A DNA stretch of 64,000 bases. Source: Acutalibacteraceae bacterium. GTDB lineage: Bacteria; Bacillota; Clostridia; Oscillospirales; Acutalibacteraceae. The notes beneath the pieces are model-generated. The model was not told the origin of the DNA, did not search any database, and saw only the letters and a program-made list of their open reading frames with translations. This document shows, in pieces, positions 17,553 to 28,593 of the stretch. Every line of letters begins with the position of its first letter. The stretch's first letter is position 1. The DNA lies in NCBI GenBank assembly GCA_045636705.1, contig JAZTYA010000033.1, positions 677 through 64,676 of the forward strand, given 5' to 3'. The position numbers were made by a program, and so were the translations under genes.

Positions 17553-17628
17553 GATCTATTAGCTCAGTTGGCAGAGCACTTGACTTTTAATCAAGGTGTC
17601 CGGAGTTCGAATCTCCGATAGATCACCA
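17553..17628 (+). tRNA. tRNA-Lys (anticodon TTT)
   Basis: Cloverleaf read by hand. Acceptor GATCTAT/ATAGATC, anticodon loop CTTTTAA, T-loop TTCGAAT, encoded CCA. Confidence 0.9.
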
Positions 17629-17631
17629 AAT

Positions 17632-17662
17632 AAAAAAACCGACCATTTGGTCGGTTTTTTTA
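17632..17662. terminator. Bidirectional terminator (tRNA-Lys / greA)
   Basis: CCGACC-ATTT-GGTCGG hairpin flanked by an A-run and a T-run. Confidence 0.8.
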
Positions 17663-17672
17663 TTTTTATAAT

Positions 17673-18176
17673 TTAATATTTTCTAATCTCTAAACTTTCA
17701 TCATCGACGCCTTTTTCAATACCTTTAATAATAGCGTAGTATTGGTTTGTGTCATCGATTTTAACAAGCACCTTATCTCCAACACGGTGACCGAGTAGGG
17801 CAGAACCCAAAGGGGATTTGTTGCTTATAATATTTCTTGAAGGGTCACGACGAAGGGTGGTTACAATTCGAACACTCTCTTCAAAGTCGTCATCTTCAAT
17901 AACAAAGGTTACCGTGTCAAAAAGTCCTACCGTATCTTCTGTGCTGTTATCATCAATTATAACAGCGGTTTTAATCATATTTCTTAAATATCTGATACGG
18001 CTTTCGTTAATTCCACGTTCTCTTTTAGCGGCATGATATTCGAAATTTTCGGATAAATCTCCATGGCTTCTTGCAAACTTTACGTCTTCAAGAATAGCAG
18101 GGCGCACAACGGTTATACGATGTTCAAGCTCTTCCTTCATTTTTTCAATATCAACCTTTGTAAGCTCATCATACAT
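17673..18176 (-). CDS. greA: Transcription elongation factor GreA
   Basis: N-terminal coiled coil with DLSENFEYHAAK and a C-terminal FKBP-like domain (SPLGSALLGHRVGD). Confidence 0.93.
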   Translation of the reverse strand: MYDELTKVDIEKMKEELEHRITVVRPAILEDVKFARSHGDLSENFEYHAAKRERGINESRIRYLRNMIKTAVIIDDNSTEDTVGLFDTVTFVIEDDDFEESVRIVTTLRRDPSRNIISNKSPLGSALLGHRVGDKVLVKIDDTNQYYAIIKGIEKGVDDESLEIRKY

Positions 18177-18212: not shown

Positions 18213-19784
18213 TTATTCCGTAAGGTGCTCACTCTTGCCAAGACCCCAGATTTCCACCTCGGCGCATTCATCAACAAGGCCAACGTAATAGGCACACAGA
18301 TTTGTGAATTTCTTGTTTATTGGTCCTAAATTTGCAAATCCCATAATATCGTTGGCATTTGTTTCGATTAAATAATCAACGTAAGCCTGAGGGATTTTAC
18401 TGTTTGCATAGTATAAATCGGGTGCGCCAAAGGCGTGTAAAATTTCGTGAGCAAAGGTTGCGGCAGGCATAATATAACTGCCTTCCGCATAAGTGGACCT
18501 GGCAAATATATTAATTACCTCTGTCTCTTTACTCTTAATACACCACGAACTTACAGTGTTGTTTTCATCGGTGTTAAAGTAAAGTATATATAGAATATTT
18601 TGAGCATTATACTTTTGCTTAAGTAGATTTGAATCAATATTATTTTCAATAAATTCGCATTGTTCATTATAACCTGTAGCATAAGGAGAAACCATCTTAC
18701 TTTCAGAAAAATCACAGGTATAATAAAGCTCGGGATGTTCCTTCCAGTCGGAAATAAATTTTGTGTCAGCGTTATAAAAAGAACCTTGTTCCTCTAACCA
18801 AAGAGTAGCTGAAATCAGGTTGGTGTGCAGAGTATCGATAAGCTGATTATCTTCTGCTGAATCAAAGTCCCAGGATGTTTCAGCATCATTTGCAAATATA
18901 GAAACAATTACAGTAGTATCATCAAACTTATCGGCAGAACCGCGTGTAACACCATCGTTTCTGATAATATCAATAACTCCCGTTTCGGTTGTGTTACAAA
19001 CGGTGCAGGTGTGCTCGCGTACGCCCTCTTTTTCGGCGGTAGCAAATTTCACAACCGACCAATCTCCAAAGGTGTGCTCGCTTAAAGCAACTTCCTTTTG
19101 TTCCTTTGTTATCTCGTTACAAACAGAACATATTCTGCCGCTTGTTTTACCTGTTTTGGTGCAGGTGGATTCAATACGGGGGATTTTAACCTCGGCATGA
19201 GGAAGCTTTTCTATTGTTTTCTGTTTTACTAAAACCTTATTACAAACCGAACAGTGAACACCTTTGGTTTTACCTTCAGAAGAACAGGTAGCCTTTATAG
19301 CCTTATCTGTGACTTTGGTGTGACCTAGTTTTTTAACGGTTTTTTGAGCAACTACAACTTCGTTACAAACAGAGCAGTGGGAACCCTTTGTTTTACCGGC
19401 TTTAGTGCAGGTAGGCTTTACAGCCTTATCTGTGACCTCGGTGTGACCAAGCTTTTGAATAGAGGTTTGAGTAACTAAAATTTCATTACAAACCGAGCAA
19501 TGTTTTCCTTCGGTTTTACCATCCTTGGTGCAGGTAGGGGAAACGGCATAATCGATAACCTCAATATGACCTGTGGCTTCGGTTGTTTTAGTTTCCTTTT
19601 CTCCACATTCGCAGACACGTTCTTCCTCTTTCTCTTCGGTGCAAGAGCCTTCCTTTAATGTTACCCATTCTCCAAAGGTATGGGAGTGGCTTGATGTTTC
19701 CGACTGCACAGTTTCATTACCACCACAGGCAGATAAAAGAAAAAGGCAAAGCAACGGCAAAATTACAGATATAATTTTTTTCAT
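18213..19784 (-). CDS. Lipoprotein paralog 1: Cys/His-repeat stalk plus C-terminal HExxH metalloprotease-like domain
   Basis: Lipobox LLSAC after MKKIISV (ATG at 19784, GAGG RBS). Four 41-aa H..C..CxxC repeats. [13 protein letters not shown] near the C-terminus. Confidence 0.8.
19080..19571 (-). repeat. 4 x 123-bp in-frame tandem coding repeats (41-aa Cys/His module)
   Basis: Repeating [24 protein letters not shown]....T..KL units. Boundaries are approximate, counted from the protein sequence. Confidence 0.65.
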
Positions 19785-19800
19785 TATAAAACCTCTATTT

Positions 19801-21522
19801 TTATTGTGAAGAATATACATATTCGGACTCAGGAATCAGATAGTAACTTTGCGCAAGACCCCACTTTTCAACATCTTCACACTTATCTGTAAGTCCGACA
19901 TAATAAGCGCATAGTTCGGAGAAAAAGACTGAAACCGATTGGCCAAAATTAACCGTGAACATAATATCGCTTGAATTAATGCTTGCAAGATAAGCAACGT
20001 ATTCCTTAGTAATTCTGGAAGAATGAGAATATAAGTCAGGTGCGCCAAATGCGTGCAAAATTTCGTGAGCGAAGGTTGCTGCAGGGGTATAAATATATTT
20101 GCCATCTTCATATTGCATTCTGTCAAGAATGTTGATTAGTTCGATATGGCTTGCGCTGCTGTTTGGAGCTTTAGAAGCACACCAAGAACGTGTAGTTATT
20201 GTTTCGGGCACGTCGTAATAAACGAAGTATAGAATGTTTTGAGCATTATGCTTTTGTAAAAGCTCCTCAGAATCTATATTTGTCTCGATAAATTCACGTT
20301 GTTGGGTAGAACTGCCGGTGCCTTCAAAAGTTTGTTCATAATATAAATCGGGATTTGCCTTCCAGTCGCAAATGAACTTTGTATCAACACCATAATTTTC
20401 ACCTTGAATTTCTAACCAACTGCAACCGTTTATTAAATGCTCATACATTAGTTCTTTTGCCTTGACGTCTTCGGGAGAATTTAGGTCCCACTGATAAGAA
20501 TCGTTGTTTGCAAAAATTGAAACAATAATGGTAGTTTCTGAAAATTTATAAGCAGAACCAAAAGCAGAGTTATATTCTCTTTTGTCGATAACGTCGGTTT
20601 CGGTTTTGTTGCATACAGTACAGGTGTGACTGCGCTTACCGGTCTTGGTTTTGGTAGCATATTTTACAACCGACCATTCGCCAAAGGTGTGTTCGCTTGT
20701 TTCCAGTTCCTTTTGCTCTTTGATTATTTCGTTACAAACCGTGCAGACCTTACCACTTGTTTTTCCTTTGGTTATACAGGTAGGTTCAACACGAGGAATT
20801 TTTTCTACGGTATGTTCAAGTTTTTCTATACTCTCTTGAGCCTTGAGCACCTCGTTACAAACCGAACAATGCTTGCCTTCTGTTTTACCTTCTTTAGCGC
20901 AGGTAGCTTTTACAGCCTTATCAATAACCTCGGTGTGTCCGAGCTTTTTGGTAGTTTTTTGAGCTTTAAGAACTTTATTACAAACCGAACAATGCTTGCC
21001 TTCTGTTTTACCTTCTTTAGTACAGGTAGCTTTTACAGCTTTATCAATAACTACGGTATGACCAAGTTTAACTGTTGCGGTTTGAGGTGTGATAATCTCG
21101 TTACAAACAGAACAATGCTTGCCTTCGGTTTTACCACCTTTAGTACAGGTAGCCTTTACAGCCTTATCAATAACCTCGGTGTGTCCAAGCTTAGCAACAA
21201 CCGTTTGTTCAACAATAACCTCATTACAAACAGAACAATGCTTACCTTCGGTTTTGCCGTCGGTAGTACAAGTAGCACTAACAGCGGCATCTATAACCTC
21301 TGTGTGTCCTGCAGCTTCGGTCTGTCTTTCTTCGGTTTCACCGCACTCGCAAGAACGAACTTCTTCTTTTCCTTCGGTGCAGGTTTCTTCTTTAACAAGA
21401 GTCCATTCACCAAAAACGTGTGTGTGGCTTGGAGTTTCCGACTGGACAGTTTCGGTATCTTTGCAGGCGGAGAGGAGAGATATGCAAAGTAAAAGTAAAA
21501 TTATAGATATAGTTTTTTTCAT
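19801..21522 (-). CDS. Lipoprotein paralog 2: five Cys/His repeats plus HExxH metalloprotease-like domain
   Basis: Lipobox LLSAC. One repeat more than its neighbours (41 aa longer). [13 protein letters not shown]. Its stop lies 16 nt before the start of paralog 1. Confidence 0.82.
20695..21309 (-). repeat. 5 x 123-bp in-frame tandem coding repeats
   Basis: Near-identical units such as [29 protein letters not shown]. Approximate boundaries. Confidence 0.65.
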
Positions 21523-21577
21523 TTTAAAACCCCCGATATTTAAAATTCTAATTAAAAGGAAAGAGATTTTTTAAAAG

Positions 21578-23176
21578 CTACTCGGCATCATAATAACTTT
21601 TTCCCAGGTTCCATTCCTCAACGTCTGCTGCTGAATCCTTAAGTCCGAGGTAGTAAGCGCATAATTCTGTAAAGCGTACGGAAATAGATTTGCCGACGTT
21701 TACTGTGAACATTATATCGCTTGATTTAATTTGGTTGCAGTAATCAACGTATTCCTGAGGAACACGGCTGTTTTTATAGTATAAATCGGGTGCGCCAAAG
21801 GCATGTAATATTTCATGCGCAAATGTAGCAGCAGGGGAGAGATAATACTGTCCTTCGCCGTAGCAGAACTTATTGAATATATTAATTACTTCCATGCTAT
21901 TACTGTTGCTATATGGAGATTTGTAGCTACACCAAGAACTTACGGTGTTAGTTACCGGAACGTCAAAATAAACTATGTATAAAATATTTTGCGCATTATA
22001 CTTTTGCATAAGTTCGTTTGAATCAACGTTTTCAGAGATGAATGCACGCTGTGTTGGAAGAAATTTGCCACTTGGAGTTATCATATCATCGCTTGAAAAA
22101 TCTGCAGTATAATATAGGTCGGGATTTTCTCTCCAGTCATAAATAAACTTTGTGTTAACACCATAAGTTTCACCTTGTGATTCCAACCAATATCCTGCAG
22201 AACATAAATGGTCGTACATAGTGTCTAAAGTTTTCTTATCTTCCTCGGAATCGAAGTCCCAAGAGGTGTTTTTGTCATTTGCAAATATAGAAACAATAAC
22301 GGTAGTTTCGCCAAAATATGCAGCAGAACCGTGCTTTGAATCTGTGTTTTTCATAGGATTAATTACACCGGTTTCGGTTGTGTTGCATACGGTGCACGTA
22401 TGTTTGCGTTCACCTTTTTTGGTTTCGGTAGCATATTTCACAACCGACCATTCTCCAAACTCGTGCTCACTGGTTGGAAGGTCTTTTTGCTCTTTAAGTA
22501 TTTCCTTACAAACCGAACAATATCTGCCTTTTGATTTGCCCGTTGTAGTGCAAGTGGGCTCAACACGAGGAATAATTACTTCGTCGTGTTCAAGTTTCTC
22601 TATAGTTGTTTGTGCAACGAGGACCTTGTTACAAACCGAACAATGCTTTCCTTTTGTTTTACCTTCTTTAGCACAGGTAGCCTTTACTGCCTTATCTACT
22701 ACTTCGGTGTGGCCAAGTTTAGCTACAACCTTCCTAGCGACAATAACTTCATTGCATACCGAACAATGCTTGCCTTCGGTTTTACCTTTTTTGGTACAAG
22801 TTGCCTTTACTGCCTTATCTATTACTTCGGTGTGACCGAGTTTTGCTACAACATTTTGAGCAACCAAAACTTCATTGCAAACCGAACAATGCTTGCCTTC
22901 GGTCTTACCGTCGGTGGTACAAGTAGCTTTAATAGCGGCATCAATAGCCTCCATATGTCCTGCGGCTTCGGTCCACTTACTCTCCTTTTCGCCACAGGCA
23001 CAAGAGCGTTCTTCCTCTTTTCCTTCGGTGCAGGTGGCTTCCTTAACTAGTACCCATTCACCAAAGGTGTGAGTATGAGCCTCTACTACCGGTTGGCTGG
23101 ATTCATTTCCACTATCACACGCCGATAGAACAAATACGCAAAGTAAAAGCAAAATAATTGATATTATTTTCTTCAT
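21578..23176 (-). CDS. Lipoprotein paralog 3: four Cys/His repeats plus HExxH metalloprotease-like domain
   Basis: ATG at 23176 (GGAGGG RBS), lipobox [18 protein letters not shown]. Confidence 0.8.
   Translation of the reverse strand: MKKIISIILLLLCVFVLSACDSGNESSQPVVEAHTHTFGEWVLVKEATCTEGKEEERSCACGEKESKWTEAAGHMEAIDAAIKATCTTDGKTEGKHCSVCNEVLVAQNVVAKLGHTEVIDKAVKATCTKKGKTEGKHCSVCNEVIVARKVVAKLGHTEVVDKAVKATCAKEGKTKGKHCSVCNKVLVAQTTIEKLEHDEVIIPRVEPTCTTTGKSKGRYCSVCKEILKEQKDLPTSEHEFGEWSVVKYATETKKGERKHTCTVCNTTETGVINPMKNTDSKHGSAAYFGETTVIVSIFANDKNTSWDFDSEEDKKTLDTMYDHLCSAGYWLESQGETYGVNTKFIYDWRENPDLYYTADFSSDDMITPSGKFLPTQRAFISENVDSNELMQKYNAQNILYIVYFDVPVTNTVSSWCSYKSPYSNSNSMEVINIFNKFCYGEGQYYLSPAATFAHEILHAFGAPDLYYKNSRVPQEYVDYCNQIKSSDIMFTVNVGKSISVRFTELCAYYLGLKDSAADVEEWNLGKSYYDAE
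22469..22960 (-). repeat. 4 x 123-bp in-frame tandem coding repeats
   Basis: Same 41-aa module as in paralogs 1 and 2. Approximate boundaries. Confidence 0.6.
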
Positions 23177-23307
23177 TATAAAGCCCTCCAAAATATCTAT
23201 ATTAACAATTTCATAATAACACACACTTCAAAATCTTTCAATTATTTTATTTCTTTTTTCATACAAACAAAAATACCGAACCAAACCAAAAGGTTTAATT
23301 CGGTATT

Positions 23308-24849: not shown

Positions 24850-25440
24850 ATGAAGCAGGATGAACTCCGTCAAAAACTGATTGACGGCACGATCCATGTT
24901 ATTGCAAAAGAGGGACTTGATAAGGCTTCAACAAAACAAATCGGACTCGCAACCTCTATTAACGAAGCCTATATTTATCGTTGTTTTAAGGATAAGGAGG
25001 ATATGTTCGCAAAAGCATTCGCTTCACTTGATGAAGAACTGTTAGAAAAGACAATGCAGCATGTTTCGGTAATGTATATTAAAGAAATGAAGTACGAACT
25101 GCGTTGTTGGACATTCTTTATATCCATTTGGGAATTTATGGTTGAAAGGCGGGATAATTGCCTTGCCTTTATTCAATATTACTATTCTCCGTATTTTTCA
25201 AAGTATTCGGCAGAAGAACATAAGGTAAGATTTACTCCGCTTGTAGATAAGTTCAAGGATGCTTTTCGTGAAGAATCAAATGTATGGTTAATACTTAACC
25301 ACATATTAAATGTAATGCTTGATTTCGCTGTAAAAGTGCACAACGGTCAGATGCCCAAAGGAGATAGCTATGCCGAGCATATTTTCAGAGTAATCTACGC
25401 GTCTGTAAAACAGTATTTCAAAAAAGAGGAGAGGGATTAA
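24850..25440 (+). CDS. TetR/AcrR-family transcriptional regulator
   Basis: N-terminal TetR HTH (IAKEGLDKASTKQIGLATSINEAYIYRCFKDKEDMF) with an all-helical C-terminal domain. Confidence 0.85.
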   Translation: MKQDELRQKLIDGTIHVIAKEGLDKASTKQIGLATSINEAYIYRCFKDKEDMFAKAFASLDEELLEKTMQHVSVMYIKEMKYELRCWTFFISIWEFMVERRDNCLAFIQYYYSPYFSKYSAEEHKVRFTPLVDKFKDAFREESNVWLILNHILNVMLDFAVKVHNGQMPKGDSYAEHIFRVIYASVKQYFKKEERD

Positions 25441-25445
25441 CAATT

Positions 25446-26174
25446 ATGAAGAAAGCACTAAAAATAATAAAAACCACAGTGGTTTGGATGATGATACTGT
25501 TGGCTGTATCAATGATGATATTCACGGTTGTTTCTGTTACTACCTTCAATCGAAATGACCGCAGCCTTTTTGGCTTTAAGATGTACATAGTAAATTCTGA
25601 TTCTATGGCAGCCACTGACTTTAATGCCGGCTCTTTGATTCTTGTAAAAGAGGTTGAGCCTTCAACACTCAAGGAAGGTGACATTATTACCTTTATGTCA
25701 CAAGATACAAACAGCTTTGGAGAAACTATAACCCATAAGATAAGGACGATAACAACCGATGCCGAAGGAAATCCTGGTTTTATCACTTACGGTACAACAA
25801 CCGACACAAATGATGAAACGATAGTTACTTATCCCTATGTGCTTGGTAAGTATCAAGGTCATATTGCCGGACTTGGTACCTTCTTTAACTTCTTGAAGAC
25901 AACCCCAGGATATTTTGTCTGCATTTTCATTCCCTTTATGCTCATTATCCTTTATGAAGGGGTTAAGTTCTTTAACCTTTTCCGTCGATATAAACAGGAG
26001 CAAATGGAAGAATTGCAGGCTGAACGCAAAAAAATCGAAGAAGAAAAGGCAGAAACTGCCAGGATTTTTGAAGAACTACGTGTTTTGAAAGCGCAGTTAG
26101 AAAATCAAGAAACAGAAACGGTAGAAGCTAAGGCCGTATTGAACGCAGAGGAGAAATCCGAAGAAGATAGCTAA
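25446..26174 (+). CDS. ER/archaeal-type signal peptidase I, divergent SipW-like paralog with C-terminal TM plus charged coiled-coil tail
   Basis: N-terminal TM, NSDSM (catalytic Ser box), ITHKI (His box), a second TM (YFVCIFIPFMLIILY), then QEQMEELQAERKKIEEEKAE... The KGD box is replaced by YGTTTDTND. Confidence 0.75.
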   Translation: MKKALKIIKTTVVWMMILLAVSMMIFTVVSVTTFNRNDRSLFGFKMYIVNSDSMAATDFNAGSLILVKEVEPSTLKEGDIITFMSQDTNSFGETITHKIRTITTDAEGNPGFITYGTTTDTNDETIVTYPYVLGKYQGHIAGLGTFFNFLKTTPGYFVCIFIPFMLIILYEGVKFFNLFRRYKQEQMEELQAERKKIEEEKAETARIFEELRVLKAQLENQETETVEAKAVLNAEEKSEEDS

Positions 26175-26312
26175 TACCACGTCCCCGTAAGAAACGAGTT
26201 GATCCCCAAATGTTAAAAATTAATACAGGTGTTCTTGTAGGTGCAAATTTAGTTTATATTGTTTGTACCGACATAACAGACAAGCAACCCCACAATCAAG
26301 AAGGAAAAAACA

Positions 26313-26540
26313 ATGCCAGCAACTAATCCAGATACCGTGCTTTATCTACTCCTTGGTATTGTAGTCATTTTCCTAATGTTTTTATTGTTGATTGGGCTAG
26401 CAGACTTTTTCAACAATTTTTCTCGCGAACTCAAACGTATAAACTGCGAAATAGATCGCACTCAAGGTTCCAAGCGACGTTATTGGAAACGGAGAAAAAG
26501 GAGATTGTGGCTTTCCTTAATACCATTTATAAAGTATTAA
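26313..26540 (+). CDS. Hypothetical small membrane protein with a highly basic tail
   Basis: 75 aa: one TM (VLYLLLGIVVIFLMFLLLIGL), then KRRYWKRRKRRLW. AAGGA RBS 8 nt upstream. No recognisable family. Confidence 0.35.
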   Translation: MPATNPDTVLYLLLGIVVIFLMFLLLIGLADFFNNFSRELKRINCEIDRTQGSKRRYWKRRKRRLWLSLIPFIKY

Positions 26541-26642
26541 CCTAGCTTACATACGGAGCATATCCTCTGATCTTGTAAGCATGGTAATCGAAATATGGTT
26601 TATTTTGTCTTGTCTTCACCTGTTTTGGTTACCATGTGCCGT

Positions 26643-26708
26643 CCTAACTCCTTTTGGGAGTTAGGCGGTAATCAAATAACATAAATTTCGCATTTATGCT
26701 ATTTGATT
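26643..26708 (+). promoter_or_regulatory. Bipartite hairpin element, copy A
   Basis: CCTAACTCC-TTTTG-GGAGTTAGG, then CGG, then a 17-bp stem AATCAAATAACATAAAT/ATTTATGCTATTTGATT (one mismatch). Confidence 0.6.
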
Positions 26709-26755
26709 GCTGAAAATCTGGCAGACCAAGATTGTTATTTTGAAAGGGCAAACAA

Positions 26756-26938
26756 ATGAAAAAAGAGCAAATAAATGATAAAGTAATACACTGCTTTGAA
26801 TGCGAAAAGGAAACTGGCGGTTGGTGTACTTTATATGAACGAGTGGTATATCCTGACAATTTTTGCGACTTTGGAATAAAGAAAAGTAAAATAACAGGCA
26901 TTATTGAAAAAGGAGACCTTAAAAATGATAAAAGTTAG
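26756..26938 (+). CDS. Hypothetical small 4-Cys protein
   Basis: 60 aa with CFEC...C...C and an AAGGG RBS. Overlaps the next gene's start by 14 nt. No recognisable family. Confidence 0.35.
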   Translation: MKKEQINDKVIHCFECEKETGGWCTLYERVVYPDNFCDFGIKKSKITGIIEKGDLKNDKS

Positions 26939-28589
26939 AAACACGAAGAAAATGCTTCTTATGAGCGCTTTATCGCTCCTTATGTGCGTATCAATGCTCA
27001 TTGGTAGTACTTTCGCTTGGTTTACCGACAGCGTTACGAGTGCCGGTAACAAAATTCAAGCAGGTACTTTGAAAATCGACCTTGAACTGCTTGATAAGGA
27101 AGATGGCTGGGCTTCCATCAAGGAATCTAAGGCTCCCATTTTCAATTACGATCTTTGGGAACCCGGTTACACCGATGTAAAGGTACTAAAAGTTGAAAAC
27201 GAAGGTAGCTTGGCTCTCAAATGGATGGCTAAGTTCATATCTGAAGACGAACTCTCCATTCTTGCTAATGTGATTGACGTTTATGTTTGCCCGAGTGCAA
27301 CCGAACTTACATATCCTGCTGACCGTAATCTCGACGGTTACACCAAGGTTGGTACTGTTCGTGATTTTGTAAACACCATTGAAAGCACCACCCACGGCAA
27401 TCTTAAAGCCGGCGAAGTAGCATATCTCGGCATAGCTTTAAAGATGCAGGAGTCTGCTGGCAACGATTATCAGGCTCTTGACCTTGGTGCATTTGATATT
27501 CAAATTATTGCTACTCAGGATACTGTTGAGGAAGATAGTTTTGATAATCAATATGATGCCGGTGCGGAATATACTGCAACCAAAACAGTTGTTAATACTG
27601 TTGATGAGTTGAATAGTGCTATAAAGAACGCGAACGAGGGCGATGTTATAAGCGTTGAACCCGGCGTATATGAAATCGTAGATACTCCTACTACCTTTTT
27701 AACAAGAGCAAGAACTGTTTCTCCGGAAGAATATGGTAATACAAAGCCTCCGTTTCTTATTACCCAAAAAGTCACGATTGAAGCGAAAGACCCCACGAAC
27801 AAGCCGCAATTTAAATTTATTACAAGTGACACAGGAAAAATTACCCACGGTTTTGATATAAGAGCAAACGATGTAACTCTTAAGAATCTCATACTCGAAG
27901 CAGACACCACAGGTGACCGCTCGGGCAATTTGGTACAGATATCCGCCAATGGCAATGATTATTATTCAAACATTACTATTGAGGGTTGCGAGTTTATTGG
28001 TTCGGACCAGAGCATTGCAATGTATGGTGATAACGTTACTATCAAGAGTTGTATATTTGATGAGTCAACAGCTCCGGAACAAGGCAACATTATCTACGTT
28101 TGGGGAACTTCCGGTAAATTAACCATTCAAGGTAATACATTTATCGGAAATAACCAAAGAAAACACGGTATTTCATTCTATAATCAGTCAGCAGCAAGCA
28201 GGATTTCGGGTGAGATTTTAATTGAGAATAACACCTTTGAAAATGTGTATAAGGGCATCGTTCACGAAAGTGATATGGAATATAGCTGCGTTACTGTTAA
28301 AGTTCTAAACAACATGTTTAGTGACTGTCTAAAGAAGCCAATAGCAATTGATTATGGTAACTATGAGTCCTATTTAGTTGAAGGAAATGTGTTCGAAGAT
28401 ATCACACATAAAGACCCGCTTATTGATAACAAGGCCAATGCTCAAGTTTATGCAGATAAAAACTATTGGGATGATCCCACCCCTAATTTGAAGAGTGTGA
28501 TTAACAATGCAAATGTTATTGTGAATAACTACTATTCAGATAAAACTAAAGAAACGCTTGTTGAAATTTCTGCCTCGGAGGAGAATTAA
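26925..28589 (+). CDS. SipW-class secreted protein: TasA-like N-terminal module fused to a right-handed beta-helix domain (subunit 1)
   Basis: ATG at 26925 after AAAGGAG. Signal KKMLLMSALSLLMCVSMLIGSTFA/WFTDSVTSAGNKIQAGTLKIDL, then EPGY...ENEGSLALK and IIATQ. After the junction SFDNQYDAGA come PbH1-like repeats (VTIKSCIF, LTIQGNTF, ILIENNTF). Confidence 0.8.
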   Translation: MIKVRNTKKMLLMSALSLLMCVSMLIGSTFAWFTDSVTSAGNKIQAGTLKIDLELLDKEDGWASIKESKAPIFNYDLWEPGYTDVKVLKVENEGSLALKWMAKFISEDELSILANVIDVYVCPSATELTYPADRNLDGYTKVGTVRDFVNTIESTTHGNLKAGEVAYLGIALKMQESAGNDYQALDLGAFDIQIIATQDTVEEDSFDNQYDAGAEYTATKTVVNTVDELNSAIKNANEGDVISVEPGVYEIVDTPTTFLTRARTVSPEEYGNTKPPFLITQKVTIEAKDPTNKPQFKFITSDTGKITHGFDIRANDVTLKNLILEADTTGDRSGNLVQISANGNDYYSNITIEGCEFIGSDQSIAMYGDNVTIKSCIFDESTAPEQGNIIYVWGTSGKLTIQGNTFIGNNQRKHGISFYNQSAASRISGEILIENNTFENVYKGIVHESDMEYSCVTVKVLNNMFSDCLKKPIAIDYGNYESYLVEGNVFEDITHKDPLIDNKANAQVYADKNYWDDPTPNLKSVINNANVIVNNYYSDKTKETLVEISASEEN

Positions 28590-28593
28590 CAGT

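Follow-up and report, generated by a model that had tools for sequence, protein, structure and literature searches.

Three consecutive minus-strand genes at 18213-23176 of the window (the whole 64,000-nt stretch of Acutalibacteraceae DNA that was analysed) share a common architecture in their open reading frames and translations, and we consider it likely that they encode paralogous, membrane-anchored lipoproteins in which a rod of putative zinc modules carries an endopeptidase of the metzincin clan, from an undescribed family. Sequence conservation and the predicted fold support the assignment of lipoprotein-type, extracytoplasmic, metzincin-like zinc metallopeptidase domains to these genes. 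The pairing would join a catalytic family that appears undescribed to a type of stalk recently found in the IgAse of Thomasclavelia ramosa.

Gene organization

The translations bear out the architecture proposed in the initial annotation. In A, B and C, a signal peptide with its lipobox (LLSAC in the first two genes and VLSAC in the third, Cys20 standing at the lipid-acceptor position) is followed by an N-cap (H.H.FGEW..C..C.CGE), by exact 41-aa repeats ([31 protein letters not shown]...KL; four, five and four units in A, B and C, seen as period-123 arrays by TRF in every one of the three genes), by a C-cap (EH.FG(E/D)W...HTCTVCN) and by a C-terminal domain of 259-268 aa that carries [17 protein letters not shown] and then (N/S)DIM. 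This domain had been described as ending in its zinc-site motif; the motif is present, but some 70-80 aa lie between it and the C-terminus in all three proteins. Pairwise identity among the paralogs is 71-79% in the repeats and 53-59% in the C-terminal domains, close to the earlier estimate by eye of about 60% for the latter and much more for the former. Gene B starts at an ATG with the ribosome-binding site GGGGG upstream and gene A at the ATG at 19784 (MKKIISV); an in-frame ATG upstream, at 19820, was rejected as the start of gene A, as the AGAGG site goes with 19784.

The genes are as tightly packed as first noted, with gaps of 55 nt (C-B), 16 nt (B-A) and 36 nt (A-greA). The terminator scan found none between gene A and greA, and, past the three genes, the sole convincing minus-strand terminator is the hairpin that follows greA, in agreement with the earlier remark that the array runs into greA with no obvious terminator. 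The position of greA next to these genes is kept in two relatives (L081 and L083), in which the order copy-copy-greA-leuS is conserved, and the three genes are possibly co-transcribed with greA. No conserved gene neighbourhood pointing to a substrate was found.

Table 1. Features of the three-gene array and its surroundings (window positions; residues in protein numbering).
Feature	Position	Strand	Details
Gene C	21578-23176	minus	532 aa; 4 modules; RBS GGAGG before ATG; closest ortholog P0001, 71% identity
Gene B	19801-21522	minus	573 aa; 5 modules; orthologs P0004, P0005 and L081 gene 2, 80-84% identity
Gene A	18213-19784	minus	523 aa; 4 modules; RBS AGAGG before ATG; ortholog P0006, 85% identity
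Promoter-like site upstream of gene C	23213-23241	minus	TTGAAA-17-TATTAT, extended -10 TG; consensus scan only
Stalk, gene C	22382-23077	minus	residues 34-265; N-cap, 4 repeats, C-cap; predicted all-beta rod
Stalk, gene B	20608-21426	minus	residues 33-305; 5 repeats; TRF period-123 array 20849-21309
Stalk, gene A	18993-19688	minus	residues 33-264; 4 repeats; TRF period-123 array 19228-19520
Catalytic domain, gene C	21581-22381	minus	residues 266-532; AF2 and Foldseek
Catalytic domain, gene B	19804-20607	minus	residues 306-573; family-profile hmmsearch E 2e-98
Catalytic domain, gene A	18216-18992	minus	residues 265-523; family-profile hmmsearch E 1e-102
Zinc-site motif, gene C	21779-21817	minus	[13 protein letters not shown]; H454-Y466
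Zinc-site motif, gene B	20029-20067	minus	
Zinc-site motif, gene A	18411-18449	minus	
Candidate Met-turn DIM, gene C	21710-21718	minus	residues 487-489
greA	17673-18176	minus	Pfam GreA_GreB_N and GreA_GreB
Terminator hairpin	17628-17665	bidirectional	after greA and tRNA-Lys

The stalk

The AF2 model of the gene C stalk is all-beta (pLDDT 95.6, pTM 0.55), and the His and Cys columns are conserved among 76 homologs. A stalk profile matches the IgAse chain 9qa6_A at its ZBD1 and ZBD2 regions (hmmsearch, E 3.6e-4), and hhalign of the stalk against the IgAse ZBD gives a probability of 94% (E 1.3e-7); by these profile comparisons, the stalk modules are homologs of ZBD1 and ZBD2, spacer domains that putatively bind zinc. 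IgAse is an igalysin (MEROPS M64), an antibody-cutting protease of a gut bacterium, and its ZBDs, with a predicted fold and putative zinc sites, have been proposed as rigid zinc-stabilised spacers that distance the catalytic domain from the cell (PMC12237041). That proposed role matches the original suggestion of a stalk that holds the enzyme off the membrane. The likening of the stalk to a zinc ribbon stood only in part: the idea of a His/Cys stalk holds, but a classical zinc ribbon does not, the predicted fold having no match in the PDB. At least 2,800 surface proteins of Clostridia contain modules of this type, which elsewhere are joined to dockerin, cohesin, SLH, LRR_5, FN3 and VanY domains; as judged from such sequence matches, the module is already described, very widespread and not peculiar to this protease family.

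The C-terminal domain

The AF2 model of the gene C domain (pLDDT 92.5, pTM 0.91) returned only metzincins among its best 50 Foldseek matches in the PDB (adamalysins/ADAMs, ADAMTS-5 and fragilysin), 39 of them at E <= 1e-3 (best 4.8e-5, probabilities ~1.0); the likeness to these solved structures is moderate (target-normalised TM 0.4-0.54, rmsd 6-11 A over ~230 columns). The best matches in the viral library were all weak (best E 4.5e-3) and likewise mostly zinc metalloproteases. In the model, the zinc motif falls in a predicted helix (190-200) and the turn that follows it, and DIM in an irregular stretch that separates two predicted helices.

Conservation points the same way. The H, E, H, G, D and Y of the motif are invariant in all 52 homologs, of 192 family representatives, 187 have an intact HE..H..G..D.Y, and all but one of these carry a downstream x[IVLM]M triplet (DIM in 147), the I and M of DIM being at least 90% conserved among the 52 homologs. 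In the domain described here, the Met stands 25 residues after the Asp. Roles in metzincins have been described for a tyrosine switch, a Met-turn and a segment that forms the S1' wall, and in snapalysins and thuringilysins the third zinc ligand is an Asp (PMC12237041). The initial reading of a protease-like domain with Asp at the third-ligand position agrees with both the fold matches and the conserved motif, and that of DIM as a possible Met-turn agrees with the conserved Met.

The family comprises ~1,400 clusters at 50% identity, mostly from gut and rumen Clostridia and without annotation, and its representatives diverge to ~30% identity. Neither Pfam nor NCBIfam gave a match to the C-terminal domain above a curated cut-off, PDB sequence searches with the catalytic domain gave nothing relevant above threshold, and a profile of 52 family sequences found no PDB metalloprotease at E <= 10; judged by the Pfam/NCBIfam profiles, the family tests negative for membership in M7, M6, M12B and M64. 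The view that no characterised family fits was thus upheld. The leaning toward snapalysin was not: the motif spacing does equal that of snapalysin, but the fold is nearest adamalysin/fragilysin and the weak sequence signal is nearest an M6 model, not M7 (Pfam Peptidase_M7 matches one of the 52 members, at E 0.022).

History of the paralogs

In the tree, each paralog clusters with its own orthologs from other genomes (71-85% identity), and synonymous sites between the paralogs are saturated (pS 0.6-0.74). Compared domain by domain, dN between paralogs is 0.34-0.41 in the catalytic domains and 0.15-0.21 in the stalks, with dN/dS ratios of 0.1-0.25 between paralogs, 0.10-0.21 for their catalytic domains and 0.08-0.09 for the catalytic domains of the gene B orthologs tested, all as whole-domain values. 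Corresponding repeat units are positionally orthologous (64-83% nucleotide identity) with no sign of recent conversion. By these comparisons the triplication is old and all three copies are under purifying selection; the description of the family as expanded and "diversifying" is unsupported, because the copies are ancient, each with an ortholog elsewhere, saturated synonymous sites and low dN/dS. The paralogs differ mainly by indels, in two upper-subdomain loops and in the segment after the Met-turn, with subfamily-specific indels before the active-site helix and after DIM. Since the segment after the Met-turn walls the S1' pocket in metzincins, the three enzymes probably differ in the substrates that they prefer.

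Alternative explanations

It is unlikely that the domain belongs, as a divergent branch, to a family already in MEROPS (M6 or a bacterial reprolysin-like M12B group would be the best candidates) and so represents no new family. Of the 52 members, 31 do match the M6 domain model TIGR03296 below threshold (best E 8.5e-6), in the region of the active-site helix and of the strands that precede it, as do all three window proteins (gene B residues 364-510, E 2e-4). However, the best score of a window protein, 23.4 bits, falls short of the curated cut-off (110.8), most matches span little beyond the motif region, and Pfam Peptidase_M6 has no match at E <= 1. The domain has the GxPDxY motif in common with M7, and the motif of InhA and thuringilysin (M6) is of the same type as in snapalysin. 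Sub-threshold matches to Reprolysin_5 (9 of 52 members), Reprolysin_4 (7 of 52) and also Reprolysin_3, together with the first rank of adamalysins in Foldseek, favor M12B, yet the third ligand is Asp, as in both M7 and M6 (PMC12237041), and not the His of M12B; the failure of the 52-sequence profile to find any PDB metalloprotease likewise argues against placement in a described family. We give almost no credence to a catalytically dead or non-peptidase zincin-fold protein such as a binding module: the domain has no curated family and its activity is predicted only, but ~97% of the 192 representatives retain the two His, the general-base Glu, the Asp, the Tyr and the Met, and such conservation over deep divergence is typical of active enzymes.

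A recent triplication under diversifying (positive) selection, driven for example by an arms race against targets of the host or of phages, is quite improbable: the catalytic domains are more diverged than the stalks and the differences cluster in loops near the predicted active site, but the saturated synonymous sites, the low whole-domain dN/dS, the closer orthologs in other genomes and the positionally orthologous repeats all speak against it. Instead of a passive spacer, the His/Cys repeats could also be a Kazal-like inhibitor or pro-region under which the protease stays latent, or could bind ligands as an array. Weak matches to Kazal_1 (E 0.02-0.04), ovomucoid (PDB, E 0.36), SPINK5 (PDB, E 0.68) and proteinase inhibitor IIA (E 0.035) hint at this; protein binding has been considered for the IgAse ZBDs, and in vitro they hamper the cleavage of IgA (PMC12237041). 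The Kazal matches, however, are below threshold and rest on C..G.T.G..C..C, with three Cys and a His against the six Cys of Kazal domains, and the same module accompanies the quite different partner domains listed above. The module is also absent from ~90% of sampled family members (present in 14 of 192), and the catalytic domain therefore needs no such module for latency, which makes this reading very improbable.

Proposed model

In the preferred reading, of stalked metzincin-clan lipoproteins, cleavage by SPase II in this gut-type, Gram-positive Clostridia bacterium would leave each protein tethered through its lipidated Cys20 to the external face of the cytoplasmic membrane. The stalk would string 6-7 small modules of three beta strands each (N-cap, 4-5 41-aa repeats and C-cap) into a rod, and each module is predicted to bind structural zinc through its invariant His/Cys set. 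As 129 residues span ~110 A in the IgAse model, stalks of 232-273 aa would extend roughly 20-23 nm, long enough for the C-terminal domain to reach into the cell wall or pass beyond it. That domain, of ~260 aa, would act as the zinc endopeptidase, with H454 and H458 of HExxH and D464 (gene C numbering) as predicted zinc ligands, E455 as predicted general base, Y466 as candidate tyrosine switch and M489 of DIM as candidate Met-turn residue. The paralogs, old and conserved, would differ in substrate preference through their diverged loops and post-Met-turn segments.

Comparison with known systems

Snapalysin (M7), the Streptomyces neutral protease, is a minimal secreted enzyme of ~130 aa, half the size of the domain here, and no snapalysin structure is among the best 50 Foldseek matches. 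The two agree in their motif spacing (HExxHxxGxPDxY), in the third ligand, an Asp, in a Tyr close by and in a conserved Met downstream (PMC12237041, PMC3890501). With thuringilysin and immune inhibitor A (M6) the domain shares the Asp ligand, and TIGR03296 is the most consistent weak sequence signal, although the window proteins score at most ~23 bits and Pfam Peptidase_M6 has no match. M6 enzymes are, moreover, secreted proteins of several domains and far greater size. Adamalysins/ADAMs (M12B) and fragilysin, the toxin of Bacteroides fragilis and likewise a gut-bacterial enzyme, supply the best predicted-fold matches, but at the modest TM values given above and with no curated threshold reached, and they differ in their His third ligand (HExxHxxGxxHD), disulfide-rich lower subdomains and prodomains.

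As predicted for the proteins here, IgAse is a surface-anchored metzincin of a gut Firmicute; its third zinc ligand is an Asp, a Tyr stands two residues further on, and it also has an xIM Met-turn and ~40-aa His/Cys beta modules of this kind. Its catalytic domain nevertheless shows no detectable sequence similarity to that of this family, which has no Peptidase_M64 match and, for the gene C domain, no igalysin structure among the best 50 Foldseek matches; its motif has one more residue (HExxHxxxGxxD), and it has a required wrapping domain and an N-terminal lectin-like domain, unlike the proteins here. In IgAse, the catalytic domain is followed by the spacers, five modules broken by an Ig-like barrel, and then by a C-terminal sortase/TM anchor, whereas here the order is reversed: an N-terminal lipid anchor, then 6-7 uninterrupted modules, then the predicted catalytic domain.

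Gene organization and domain architecture

Dissection by script of the products of genes A, B and C, three tandem paralogs on the minus strand, recovered the genes, repeats, caps and domains that the initial annotation had described, so that its account of the architecture proved accurate. Each product begins with MKK, followed by about 13 hydrophobic residues and L-S-A-C with the cysteine at position 20 (lipobox LLSAC or VLSAC); these N-termini thus have the charged n-region, hydrophobic h-region and lipobox ([LVI][ASTVI][GAS]C) of a predicted lipoprotein and SPase II substrate. A linker of 12-13 aa leads to an N-terminal cap common to all three (H.H.FGEW...C...C.CGE), then to exact 41-aa repeats (four in A, five in B and four in C, of the pattern H-x11-C-x10-C-x2-C plus a second His), which TRF reports as period-123 arrays in each gene, and to a C-terminal cap (EH.FG[ED]W...HTCTVCN); caps and repeats together are here called the stalk. 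The C-terminal (catalytic) domain of 259-268 aa completes the protein, with the Met of (N/S)DIM lying 25 residues beyond the Asp of the protease motif. That motif, said to end the domain, is indeed present but lies 70-80 residues before the domain end, and the impression that the C-terminal domains were less alike than the repeats was borne out by pairwise identities of 53-59% versus 71-79%.

A Shine-Dalgarno sequence precedes each ATG, the intergenic gaps are short, a promoter-like site lies directly beyond the terminator of an upstream tRNA-His/tRNA-Gln pair, and the next convincing minus-strand terminator follows greA; co-transcription of the three genes, perhaps together with greA, is plausible. 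The plus-strand ORFs of 154-288 aa that run antisense to the repeat arrays are low-complexity shadows of the 123-nt repeats and not genes. Beyond the paralogs, the plus-strand genes from 24850 to 29217 look like a SipW/TasA-type fibre or biofilm-matrix cluster.

Features of the three-gene locus and of the neighboring cluster in the window
Feature	Coordinates	Strand	Remarks
greA	17673-18176		36 nt beyond gene A
Gene A	18213-19784	minus	ORF, 523 aa; gap from gene B 16 nt
Gene B	19801-21522	minus	ORF, 573 aa; gap from gene C 55 nt
Gene C	21578-23176	minus	ORF, 532 aa
Antisense ORFs	20626-21574 and 22221-23050	plus	opposite the repeat arrays
Promoter-like site	23241-23213		TTGAAA-17-TATTAT with extended TG; upstream of gene C
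Terminator of the tRNA-His/tRNA-Gln pair	23308-23271
TetR regulator	24850-25440	plus
Membrane protein	25446-26174	plus	242 aa; no Pfam match
Secreted protein	26904-28589	plus	561 aa; camelysin/TasA match at the N-terminus (Peptidase_M73, E 6e-7), then a probable beta-helix region
ORF	28558-29217	plus	weak signal-peptidase S26 match

The catalytic domain: sequence family and predicted fold

Pfam and NCBIfam scans of the full A, B and C proteins gave no match above cut-off; below it were spurious Kazal, EGF and HEPN matches, a lipoprotein signal peptide and a weak M6 signal. Searches of PDB sequences with one protein and with a 52-sequence profile returned no metalloprotease, and the 51 homologs found by word-indexed search carried neither a Pfam domain nor any name beyond "hypothetical protein." When 1.84 billion cluster representatives (clusters at 50% identity) were searched exhaustively with the profile, 1,443 matched at E <= 1e-3, of which 808 reached E <= 1e-10 and 358 reached E <= 1e-30. 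Scanned member by member, 25 of 52 homologs weakly matched NF038115 (SVAGG GlyGly-CTERM family). Literature searches turned up nothing specific on this family or its repeat beyond papers on the Thomasclavelia ramosa IgA protease (IgAse) and on mini-zincins.

H195, E196, H199, F201, G202, A203, D205, Y207, Y249, Y250 and G252 are invariant in the 52-sequence alignment, in which I229 and M230 are at least 90% conserved. Among 192 representatives of the family, 187 have HE..H..G..D.Y exactly (the other five have lost the G, the D or HExxH), and 186 of those 187 carry a downstream x[IVLM]M triplet, which in 147 is DIM, the candidate Met-turn.

An AlphaFold2 model built from the family alignment was confident (pLDDT 92.5, pTM 0.91). 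HExxH falls within a predicted helix (190-200) followed by a turn, and DIM lies in a non-regular segment between predicted helices 215-223 and 245-250. The fold search that the initial annotation had suggested returned metzincin catalytic domains for all of the best 50 Foldseek matches in the PDB, among them snake-venom adamalysins, ADAM8/10/17/22/33, ADAMTS-5 and Bacteroides fragilis fragilysin; 39 of these 50 had E <= 1e-3 (best 4.8e-5) and probabilities were about 1.0, while the structural similarity was moderate (TM 0.4-0.54, target-normalised up to about 0.54). Among viral models the best matches, all of them weak (best E 4.5e-3), were again mostly zinc metalloproteases. A metzincin catalytic domain comprises an upper subdomain, in which a beta-sheet is joined by the backing and active-site helices, and a lower subdomain, which is small. 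The order of strands and helices that DSSP assigns to the model agrees with this layout. The Met-turn of metzincins is a tight turn that places a conserved Met under the zinc site and leads into a C-terminal helix.

The metzincin motif is HExxHxxG/NxxH/D. Asp is rare as its third ligand and occurs in the snapalysins (M7) and thuringilysins (M6) and also in the igalysins (M64), whose motif is one residue longer; a Tyr located two positions beyond the third ligand can serve as a "tyrosine switch," and the stretch after the Met-turn (CIM in IgAse) forms a wall that gives the S1' pocket its shape (PMC12237041; PMC3890501). Each of these features has a counterpart in A, B and C, the Met-turn and the wall segment as candidates. 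In its motif and in its modeled fold, then, the domain has the predicted attributes of clan MA(M).

The stalk and its homologs

No Pfam model describes the stalk module, which drew just spurious zinc-ribbon and EGF matches. At least 2,813 proteins are nevertheless homologous to it, nearly all of them from Clostridia among the matches listed, in architectures that include dockerin, cohesin, SLH, BspA-type LRR, FN3 and VanY domains. The His and Cys columns are invariant or almost so in a consensus of 76 homologs. The AlphaFold2 model of the stalk is all-beta (pLDDT 95.6), with a low pTM (0.55), as a rod would be expected to give, and Foldseek found no meaningful match for it to a solved fold in the PDB.

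The stalk profile did match PDB 9qa6_A ("IgA protease") at residues 852-1025 and 1102-1142 (E 3.6e-4), regions that correspond to the putative zinc-binding spacer domains ZBD1 and ZBD2 of IgAse. Alignment of the profile with the ZBD1 segment by hhalign gave a probability of 94% (E 1.3e-7), BLASTP of the stalk against the ZBD segment gave E 0.006, and the C-terminal cap closely resembles IgAse AHTAGEWIVDTPATATTAGTKHKECTVCH. Taken together, these profile, hhalign and BLASTP matches identify the stalk, by sequence homology to ZBD1/ZBD2, as a known and recently described module. In IgAse both domains are long chains whose subdomains fold as three-stranded antiparallel sheets (34-56 residues in ZBD1), with predicted structural zinc sites at the subdomain interfaces formed by 2 His + 2 Cys or 3 Cys + 1 His; a stretch of 129 residues measures about 110 A, and the domains were proposed as spacers that hold the catalytic domain out from the cell surface, their binding of zinc being a prediction only (PMC12237041). 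The stalk would fit this pattern as an elongated chain of beta subdomains of about 40 aa with four predicted His/Cys ligands per site. Scaled from the IgAse model, we infer a length of roughly 20-23 nm.

History of the three paralogs

The initial annotation had proposed an expanded and diversifying family, a view that the history of the genes does not support. In a neighbor-joining tree of catalytic domains each window paralog groups with its own orthologs, at identities of 85% for A (homolog P0006), 80-84% for B (P0004, P0005 and gene 2 of locus L081) and 71% for C (P0001), whereas the three are 51-58% identical to one another. Between paralogs, synonymous sites are saturated in the Nei-Gojobori comparison (pS 0.6-0.74) and dN/dS is 0.10-0.25 in every domain, a magnitude that is unreliable because dS is saturated; comparisons of gene B with its orthologs were therefore added, and these gave an omega of 0.08-0.09 for the catalytic domain, in keeping with purifying selection. 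The repeats are positionally orthologous (C1 with B1 and A1; the last units C4, B5 and A4 with one another), corresponding units being 64-83% identical in nucleotides, and there has been no recent homogenisation. Relatives carry two repeats versus the four or five here, and the stalk therefore differs in length from lineage to lineage. On two metagenomic contigs of related organisms (L081 and L083) the order is copy-copy-greA followed by a convergent gene, the same order as in the window with its three copies, and the adjacency to greA is therefore ancestral in the clade. The product of the convergent gene is 804 aa in L081, where from its position and size it is taken to be leuS, and is cut at 143 aa in L083. 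The public call of the second copy in L081 (1463-2860, 465 aa) reads through two stops and into greA; under table 11 the ORF stops at 2806 (447 aa), and the longer call is probably a gene-calling artefact or reflects another genetic code.

Differences specific to the subfamilies cluster at three places: a 7-aa indel in B, in the loop after the second strand; a 6-aa indel in A, in the loop that leads to the edge strand preceding the active-site helix; and the segment directly after DIM, which is FTVNVGKSISVRF in C and different in A and which, by analogy with other metzincins, would line the S1' pocket. Overall, the evidence points to old, subfunctionalised paralogs and not to a recent diversifying expansion.

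Distribution of the family and its gene neighborhoods

At least 355 loci were confirmed in species-representative genomes, mostly of gut and rumen Clostridia; hosts include Lachnospiraceae, Oscillospiraceae, Ruminiclostridium, Butyrivibrio, Pseudobutyrivibrio ruminis DSM 9787, Anaerostipes sp. MSJ-23 and Faecousia intestinalis. The best species-representative match to the window, among the matches listed, is just 47% identical, and in a collection of 15 billion proteins clustered at 90% identity each of the window proteins stands as a singleton. A typical member has 290-420 aa, comprising a signal peptide, often a lipobox, a short linker and the catalytic domain, and is encoded by a gene that is single-copy at its locus (78 of 84 loci). 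His/Cys modules occur in just 14 of 192 representatives. One protein of 1,487 aa from an uncultured Clostridia MAG (L007, 87-4550) has five such modules, with a long N-terminal region ahead of them and the catalytic domain at the C-terminus (residues 1209-1484). In homologs P0013 and P0015 another Cys-rich spacer with repeats of C.xPKTC..CG...H.W replaces the 41-aa module; the same catalytic domain has therefore apparently acquired stalks made of different Cys modules.

Across 80 loci no neighbor is conserved, the recurring genes being generic ABC and two-component superfamily members of variable position and orientation that give no clue at the level of operons. At three distant loci (L063, 5771-9491; L056, 4266-8888; L018, 6573-8540) the family gene adjoins a response regulator, histidine kinase and/or ABC ATPase, in a layout that recalls Bce-type peptide-sensing modules; it occurs in three to four of the 80 loci, so there is no general association. 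Members at 34-40% identity were seen in a few MAGs labelled as Treponema/Spirochaetaceae (L028, L039, L069) or Bacteroidaceae (L046), and could reflect either horizontal transfer among gut and rumen bacteria or binning errors.

Discussion

We conclude from sequence and model that the C-terminal domain is a predicted zinc endopeptidase domain of the metzincin clan, from a family absent from the curated libraries searched. The core of the initial reading stands: the predicted metalloprotease would be extracytoplasmic and tethered, its Asp motif is of the snapalysin type, and its stalk is predicted to bind metal. What is new is the family and its architecture within a well-known clan; the stalk module has already been described.

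Among the metzincins are enzymes important to the way in which gut bacteria interact with their host, fragilysin and IgAse for example, and a sizeable family lacking curated annotation (about 1,400 clusters at 50% identity, at least 355 loci) is now delineated. Its catalytic signature is intact and its fold prediction confident, so the family is a ready target for substrate discovery. In 2025 the ZBD was reported from a single protein, as what may be a novel metal-binding fold (PMC12237041). As the present searches indicate, it is a very widely used component of the surface proteins of Clostridia, present in at least 2,800 of them and lacking a proper Pfam model, and the models suggest that it may build long rods without interruption. 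Because the putative S1' walls of the three paralogs differ, these old and conserved genes amount to a natural experiment on specificity. We put forward tentatively, as somewhat less than an even prospect, that the domain would define a new metzincin family at MEROPS level, at home in Clostridia of the gut and rumen; beside snapalysins, thuringilysins and igalysins it would be the fourth group to use Asp as third ligand. In the same proposal it would be carried here on a zinc-stiffened ZBD rod whose repeat number (two in relatives, four to five here) would serve as a ruler for the reach of each of three specificity-diverged proteases through the cell wall.

The initial annotation could place the proteins in no characterised family, and this held for each known group considered, some of which lie close in one respect and not in another. 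Kinship with the botulinum neurotoxin (BoNT) A light chain was rejected: the active-site region of gene C (21779-21850, minus strand) resembles DPAVTLAHELIHA of that protein (PAxTxAHExxHA; phmmer with an 85-aa active-site query, E 0.004), and the resemblance, in sequence, is at the level of the motif only; BoNT is a gluzincin, whereas the fold search points to metzincins. Thuringilysins (M6) provide the sole recurrent sequence signal: TIGR03296 ("M6 family metalloprotease domain") is reached by A, B and C at E 1e-4 to 6e-3 (16-22 bits) and sub-threshold by 31 of 52 members (best E 8.5e-6), and the M6 protein InhA presumably has a motif in common with this domain. Over all scans, scores in A, B and C are nonetheless 16.5-23.4 bits versus a curated cut-off of 110.8, none of the 52 members is shown above it, and there is no Peptidase_M6 (PF05547) Pfam match.

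By predicted fold the catalytic domain is nearest to adamalysin/fragilysin, and it fails the family-level tests for M7, M6, M12B and M64. For M12B, Reprolysin_3, _4 and _5 gave only sub-threshold matches (best E 8e-4; Reprolysin_5 in nine and Reprolysin_4 in seven of the 52 members), and that family has HExxHxxGxxHD with His as third ligand, whereas all 187 motif-bearing representatives here have Asp. The likeness to snapalysin (M7, PF02031) stood for the motif, as the spacing HExxHxxGxPDxY and the position of the Asp ligand are the same in A, B and C, but not for kinship: A, B and C had no Peptidase_M7 match at E <= 1 and one of 52 homologs had E 0.022, the weak sequence link being to M6 and the predicted fold adamalysin/fragilysin-like. 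As to igalysins (M64), no Peptidase_M64 match, no PDB match of the catalytic profile to IgAse and no igalysin entry such as 3P1V or 4DF9 among the best 50 Foldseek matches were found; their motif, HExxHxxxGxxD, has an extra residue before the Gly, whereas here the canonical two residues separate His and Gly. With IgAse these proteins share the stalk module, here an uninterrupted array of six to seven ZBD-type units.
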